Sequence record: AB841366.1
Source of the DNA: a phage
Length of the DNA stretch: 887 nt
Reading direction: 5' to 3' (one strand)
Shown here piece after piece: positions 1-887 of this stretch. The position numbers and the translations under genes were made by a program. Each line of letters starts with the position of its first letter. The stretch's first letter is position 1. Under the pieces are notes generated by a model. It searched no databases. It was not told the DNA's origin and saw only the letters and a program-made list of their open reading frames with translations.

Positions 1-2
1 AG

Positions 3-122
3 CTTGAGCTATTCAAAATTCACTTCCAGTCAGGCGGCGCTAATTCAGATATCACGATCCGCACATTTGAAGCGGTGCGTAAATCGAAGGAAGCGTTAGA
101 CCTGTTCACCACCGGAGCATAA
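3..122 (+). CDS. 3' end of an upstream ORF (5'-partial, product unknown); reads ...LELFKIHFQSGGANSDITIRTFEAVRKSKEALDLFTTGA*
   Basis: Frame 3 is open from the window edge to TAA at 120..122, while the other two + frames hit stops at 5..7 and 97..99. Same orientation and tight spacing with the downstream terminase genes. I do not recognise the product. A minus-strand frame is also open across this region, so coding status is uncertain. Confidence 0.3.
   Translation, partial: LELFKIHFQSGGANSDITIRTFEAVRKSKEALDLFTTGA
113..116 (+). promoter_or_regulatory. Shine-Dalgarno-like GGAG, 8 nt upstream of ATG 125
   Basis: GGAG at 113..116, spacer 117..124, ATG at 125..127. Seen directly in the sequence. 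Confidence 0.3.
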
Positions 123-124
123 AC

Positions 125-196
125 ATGGCAACTCAAGGTTTCGACAACCCATCCAAATTCCGCGATGAATGGGATAAGCAAGCAGAAGGGAAATAA
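125..196 (+). CDS. Tiny hypothetical ORF, 23 aa (MATQGFDNPSKFRDEWDKQAEGK)
   Basis: ATG 125..127 preceded by GGAG at optimal spacing; TAA at 194..196, 5 nt before the small terminase start. It starts 2 nt after the upstream ORF stop. Too short to judge by composition and absent from the ORF track; could be a real small phage protein or a chance ORF. Confidence 0.25.
   Translation: MATQGFDNPSKFRDEWDKQAEGK
185..190 (+). promoter_or_regulatory. Purine-rich Shine-Dalgarno-like element (GAAGGG) for the small terminase gene
   Basis: GAAGGG at 185..190 lies 11 nt upstream of ATG 202, a slightly long spacer. ATG 202 is the first ATG after the in-frame stop TAA at 175..177. Confidence 0.3.
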
Positions 197-201
197 TCAA
201 T

Positions 202-627
202 ATGGCGACTGAGAAAAAGAATGTCGGTCGCCCTTCGGATTACCTGCCGGAGGTGGCTGATGATATCTGTGCGCTGCTTGCCTCCGGGGAAAGTCTGGTT
301 AAGGTTTGCAAGCGCCCCGGCATGCCAGCAAAGGCTACTGTATTTCGCTGGCTGTCAGAGCATGACGACTTTAGAGACAAGTACGCGAAGGCAACTGAGG
401 CGCGAGCTGATTCTATTTTCGAAGAGATATTCGAAATTGCTGACACTGCGATTCCAGATGCTGCTGAGGTGGCAAAGGCAAGACTTCGCGTTGATACCCG
501 CAAATGGGCGCTGGCCCGAATGAATCCCCGTAAGTATGGCGACAAGGTAACTAACGAGCTTGTCGGCAAAGACGGCGGCGCAATCCAGATTGAAACATCA
601 CCGATGAGCACTCTATTCGGAAAATGA
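202..627 (+). CDS. terS: Phage terminase small subunit (DNA-recognition subunit of the packaging motor), 141 aa, complete
   Basis: Complete ORF from ATG 202 to TGA 625..627. N-terminal region (GRPSDY...[30 protein letters not shown]...FRDKYAKA) matches my recollection of the helix-turn-helix DNA-binding domain of small terminases, and [24 protein letters not shown] resembles their conserved oligomerisation core. Sits immediately upstream of, and overlaps, a large terminase gene. As I recall it, very similar to Sf6 gp1. terS is a generic functional symbol, not a locus-specific name. Confidence 0.9.
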
Positions 628-887
628 CCTCGATTAATCCTATCTTTGAACCGTTCATTGAGGCGCATCGCTACAAAGTCGCCAAAGGCGGTCGAGGTAG
701 CGGTAAATCATGGGCAATTGCGAGGCTGCTTGTTGAGGCGGCGCGTCNGCAGCCTGTGCGTATTCTCTGCGCTCGTGAACTGCAAAACAGTATCAGCGAT
801 TNNTAATCCNNGCTGCTTGAAGATACCATCNAGCGTGAAGGGTATTCNNCTGANTTGAAATTCNNCGNTNAATGATTCNNCATCTCG
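624..887 (+). CDS. terL: Phage terminase large subunit (packaging ATPase/nuclease), N-terminal portion, 3'-partial; apparent stop at 804..806 is probably a sequencing artifact
   Basis: ATG at 624..626 overlaps the terS stop (ATGA) and is the only ATG between the upstream in-frame stop (591..593) and the Walker A motif. Translation [36 protein letters not shown] contains the P-loop KGGRGSGKS (684..710), typical of PBSX/Terminase_3-type large terminases; as I recall it, close to Sf6 gp2. Large terminases are several hundred aa, so the gene must extend past the window. The same frame after 806 reads S-X-LLEDTI-X-REGYS (807..848). The exact 3' path is unreliable because of Ns and likely indels. 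Confidence 0.85.

Follow-up and report, generated by a model that had tools for sequence, protein, structure and literature searches.

The window, by which we mean the whole 887-base stretch of DNA analysed here, contains the 3' end of a DUF2560-family gene, a 23-aa open reading frame (ORF), the gene for the small terminase subunit (TerS) and the start of the gene for the large terminase subunit (TerL) (Table 1). E. coli homologues of the first gene are annotated as DUF2560 family protein, and the counterpart of TerS in Sf6, HK620 and Kapi1 is annotated as terminase small subunit. TerS lies directly upstream of TerL, with its stop and the TerL start overlapping as ATGA at 624-627, and a portal gene lies 3' of TerL in all annotated homologues, beyond the window, in keeping with the synteny expected of a large terminase gene. 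As deposited, the ORF begun at 624 is closed after 60 aa by a TAA at 804-806. Fifteen bases are given as N (748, 802, 803, 810, 811, 831, 848, 849, 854, 864, 865, 868, 870, 879 and 880), and the original prediction, which placed the stop in a cluster of ambiguous bases at 802, 803, 810 and 811 and noted others as far as 880, described the letters correctly.

Table 1. Features of the window. Length errors and false stops are named according to the reading preferred in the text.
Feature	Position	Strand	Remarks
DUF2560-family gene (hkbM-like), 3' end	3..122	+	Stop TAA 120-122; Pfam DUF2560 E = 3.4e-16, profile positions 38-72 of 72
23-aa ORF MATQGFDNPSKFRDEWDKQAEGK	125..196	+	From the ORF list; GGAG 7 nt 5' of ATG; between the DUF2560 gene and TerS
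TerS (small terminase subunit), 141 aa	202..627	+	Pfam Sf6_terminase 150.3 bits, E = 2.2e-44
TerL codons 1-59 and first base of Ser60, true frame	624..801	+	Terminase_3 match; no indel relative to eight homologues
First -1 error	802..803	+	NN for three true bases; TCGG read as TNN
False stop TAA	804..806	+	In the true frame, bases 2-3 of Val61 (GTA) and base 1 of Ile62 (ATC)
+1 error	810..812	+	NNG for two true bases (GG; GA in some relatives); CGG read as CNNG; 624 frame back from CTG at 813
TerL Leu64 to first two bases of Glu77, 624 frame	813..853	+	LLEDTIEREGYSAE; called bases all identical to UPEC_U013
Second -1 error	854..856	+	NTT for four true bases GTTT; GAGTTT read as GANTT
Second false stop TGA, 624 frame	873..875	+	In the true frame aTG Att, Met84-Ile85

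A total of 98 phage records matched the window, the top ones being Kapi1, HK620, Sf101 and Sf6, all of them members of Lederbergvirus. Among 5,426 complete E. coli genomes, 923 also had matching prophages, and in 224 of these at least 80% of the window was covered. With Ns scored as mismatches, the best identity to the window was 90.8% in the phage collection and 97.2% in the E. coli collection. The closest relative, the prophage of E. coli UPEC_U013, in which a 471-aa protein annotated as 'PBSX family phage terminase large subunit' is encoded ahead of a portal gene, showed zero true mismatches to window positions 148-887, its differences consisting of the 15 Ns and three one-base insertions or deletions (indels).

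Mosaic joints were apparent towards the 5' end of the window. Upstream of position ∼129, homology to the window was lost in many contigs with the same TerL, and a further joint at ∼206 was seen in phages APC_JM3.2, EC.P3 and E212, which are 98-99% identical to window positions 1-206. Over this interval, these three phages are annotated with a hypothetical protein, then 'DNA-packaging protein' or 'terminase small subunit'. In Sf6, 37 of the 52 mismatches to the window fall within 223-402, the N-terminal part of TerS, and the remaining TerS and TerL sequence is almost identical.

The gene that the stop appears to interrupt is readily recognised. The 60-aa piece (624-803) alone scored 28.8 bits against Pfam Terminase_3 (cut-off 23.2), and the full-length TerL homologue in locus L005 scored 141.5 bits against the same profile. 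A Walker A motif, GGRGSGKS (G22-G-R-G-S-G-K28-S29), is encoded at 687-710 by bases that are all unambiguous, and conforms to the pattern GxxxxGK[ST]. The window stops at TerL codon 88; in a homologue of identical sequence, Terminase_3 covers residues 15-206 and Terminase_3C matches weakly at residues 305-449, the domain limits being Pfam coordinates. Once the length errors proposed below are repaired, the 88-aa TerL translation is identical at 88/88 positions to the crystallised Sf6 gp2 (PDB 4IDH, 4IFE). The window thus shares with Sf6 gp2 (PDB 4IDH, 4IEE, 4IEI, 4IFE) the 88 N-terminal residues, the Walker A motif and the TerS-TerL order with its ATGA overlap. There is no biological difference between the two; the window simply covers the first ∼88 codons only and carries what we take to be three read-length errors. 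With these errors set aside, the gene is a normal, intact TerL of ∼470 aa and a member of the Sf6 gp2 / Terminase_3 / PBSX family.

Whether homologues read through the site in frame had been put forward as a check on the stop, and they do so without exception: in every one of the 44 loci whose downstream context is complete, TerL continues past the site for 414-415 codons, giving a total of 470-471 aa. Nor could a 60-aa product function, as had been argued, given that it would take in just 46 of the 201 positions of the ATPase profile and none of the nuclease domain.

The nature of the interruption became clear from pairwise gapped alignments of the window, with N treated as a wildcard, against eight Sf6/HK620-like phages and E. 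coli prophages. In the TerL part, all eight alignments agreed on exactly three one-base indels, each of them on an N run: a base missing after 801, an extra base at ∼808-810 and a base missing after 853. Treating N as a wildcard lets the aligner set gaps beside Ns, but the exact matches flanking each indel leave it at most 1-3 bases away from an N in any case. A MAFFT alignment in which no gaps were opened at 802-812 had presented a block of mismatches there that could be mistaken for substitutions, and the wildcard alignments resolved this block to a -1/+1 pair. The length of the window agrees with the indels: it has 887 bases where every full-length E. coli match has 888, and this net loss of one base is what three such indels predict, unlike substitutions.

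Set out by codon, the true sequence GAT TCG GTA ATC CGG CTG (D59 S60 V61 I62 R63 L64) stands in the window as GAT TNN TAA TCC NNG CTG. The triplet behind the NN at 802-803 is CGG in 49 of 50 pattern-matching loci and CAG in Sf6. Between the -1 and the +1 error four codons are off frame, and S V I R is read as X-stop-S-X. The hexamer TAATCC, which begins with the stop, matches the homologues exactly after a register shift of one base, and the called letters T-A-A are therefore probably correct in themselves, being an out-of-frame part of GTA ATC. The original prediction had attributed the stop to a base-calling artefact. We agree that it is an artefact within an intact gene, although the fault lies in a compensating -1/+1 pair of lengths rather than in a wrong base within the TAA.

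The reading downstream of the stop supports the same interpretation. As had been noted, the 624 frame after the TAA gives S-X-L-L-E-D-T-I-X-R-E-G-Y-S (the last codon being TCN), and the claim that so protein-like a continuation is unlikely by chance is borne out by the identity of the called bases at 813-853 to UPEC_U013 and by the complete agreement of the repaired peptide with Sf6 gp2. The further claim that the same frame continues holds in part: the frame resumes at 813, but it is lost again at ∼854, before the end of the window. Positions 855-887 are correct only in the 626 frame, whose translation ends EIXXXMIXHL, corresponding to EIQRSMIRHL. The second false stop, the TGA at 873-875, appears in the 624 frame because the error at ∼854 shifts it. 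Neither the third indel with this TGA nor the position of the TAA across Val61 and Ile62 had formed part of the original prediction.

Searches of public collections for the spacing of bases around these sites gave a consistent picture. The literal spacing around the TAA was absent from all 2.9 million viral contigs and from the genome contigs, and the spacing with the first deletion alone likewise returned 0 matches. The corrected spacing had 42 matches among the viral contigs and a single one among the genome contigs, the latter collection being species-representative with one genome per species, such that its single match says nothing on prevalence; for that, the matches in complete E. coli genomes given above are the relevant figures. 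For the third indel, the literal spacing had 0 matches in the viral contigs and the corrected spacing had at least 120.

The distribution of the ambiguous bases offers an explanation for the errors. All 15 Ns lie within 748-880, in the last 140 bases of the window, and none within 1-747. None of the three indels is more than one base away from an N, a coincidence with a chance probability of ∼6e-5 when calculated over the whole window and ∼0.014 over the tail only. These are the marks of a read-tail artefact, namely Ns gathered at one end of the read and length discrepancies that coincide with them. The Ns are also biased in what they replace, with 9 of 14 standing over G (p = 0.004) and a C preceding 6 of the 9 N runs. 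This suggests that C-G steps towards the end of the read were systematically hard to resolve (e.g., through compression), rather than that signal was lost at random. At its 5' end the window begins AGCTT, and in the homologous locus L005 (1500-1505) a preceding A completes the HindIII site AAGCTT. Because of this start, the clean sequence over 1-747 and the N-rich tail, the window resembles a single-pass read taken from the HindIII end of a clone of an Sf6/HK620-like (Lederbergvirus) prophage or phage.

We infer a Sanger platform for the window from its resemblance to the errors known from the tails of single-pass Sanger reads (miscounts, Ns and G/C compressions). It shares with them the confinement of Ns to one end, the indels at Ns and the bias towards G after C; it is also free of substitutions among the called bases (148-887 compared with UPEC_U013) and starts at a restriction half-site. 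The sequence of events was probably as follows. Read quality would have collapsed after ∼747, and Ns would have been entered, by base-calling software or by a person reading a gel, for bases that could not be resolved, mostly a G after a C. At three of these spots the number of bases would have been miscounted as well, with CGG becoming NN, GG becoming NNG and GTTT becoming NTT. The first miscount would have moved the register by one, such that the out-of-frame TAA of GTA ATC fell in frame, and the second, nine bases on, would have restored the frame; this accounts for the terminase-like sequence directly beyond the 'stop'. With the third, the frame would have been shifted anew and the TGA at 873-875 produced. 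We are nearly certain that the stop in TerL is an artefact of paired length errors in a read tail and no biological feature. That the length differences are reading errors, and not mutations of the clone, is what we infer from their coincidence with Ns and from the uninterrupted gene in the relatives.

The same letters could be taken to record a genuine TerL pseudogene, in which the prophage truly carries the -1, +1 and -1 indels, translation stops after 60 codons and DNA is not packaged. Defective prophages with broken terminase genes are common, and the deposited sequence does hold an in-frame TAA and a 60-aa ORF. As deposited, the window shares this break after 60 codons with the frameshifted terminase pseudogenes of cryptic prophages; it differs from them in showing no decay, in having its breaks on ambiguous bases and in returning to frame nine bases later. 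A loss of one base followed at that distance by a compensating gain is typical of miscounting and unlike independent mutations, and each of the three indels would need to have fallen on a run of Ns in the tail of the read. Across 740 bases there are zero called-base differences from an intact relative, and neither the literal nor the deletion-only spacing occurs in the collections searched. A convincing pseudogene would have an unambiguously read stop and no in-frame homology beyond it; here there are Ns on both sides of the stop and perfect terminase homology from 813, and independent sequences show neither the lesion nor other decay. We therefore regard a genuine pseudogene as very unlikely, and a clean sequence TCGGTAATCCGG from the clone would contradict it. 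The lack of decay could be accommodated by a freshly inactivated TerL in an otherwise undecayed prophage, with the Ns falling at the lesions by accident or the mutant sequence itself reading badly, but there is only a very small chance that this is the case.

The position of the TAA among ambiguous bases might also suggest that the spacing is right and that the triplet itself contains a miscalled base, making TAA a misread sense codon. A gapless alignment kept in register on this basis produces a run of mismatches over 802-812, however, whereas a shift of one base gives the exact TAATCC match to all homologues, and the net loss of one base relative to the 888-base matches is left unaccounted for; we consider a miscalled triplet highly improbable. 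Programmed recoding, in which frameshifting or readthrough would bypass the stop and so regulate TerL expression, has in its favour only the terminase-like sequence that resumes after the stop. In the relatives TerL is one continuous ORF (44/44 loci), with no stop or change of frame at the site, and the site is thus not conserved in homologues as a recoding signal would be. Among the collections searched, the stop is confined to this one N-rich read, and recoding can be considered extremely improbable. Paired length errors in the tail of the read thus remain our preferred explanation of the stop.

The significance of these results is one of annotation hygiene only, and they hold no biological novelty. 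Taken literally, the record leads to a 60-aa 'terminase' fragment or to a pseudogene call. The prediction that annotation pipelines would call the 60-aa ORF is matched by the mechanically produced ORF list, which does exactly this. A stop flanked by Ns can be a correctly called triplet that neighbouring miscounts have forced into frame. Since the triplet is probably correct and its neighbours miscounted, replacing the TAA would be the wrong repair, and it is the lengths of the N runs that should be corrected instead.

Two further observations concern the surroundings of the gene and the occurrence of its sequence elsewhere. The 23-aa ORF at 125-196 is context and lies outside the artefact. It had no Pfam match and no annotation in the RefSeq homologues, and it was present in seven of the loci fetched, with a single variable site that is nonsynonymous. 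In HK620 and Kapi1, a different gene of 59 aa (hkbN) occupies the place of this ORF. Finally, an exact copy of this enterobacterial-phage TerL sequence was found at 7-38 in a 6.9-kb contig assigned to the Actinomycetota (L051; JAIHTM010000136.1, 'MAG: Collinsella sp.'), for which contamination during binning is the most likely explanation.
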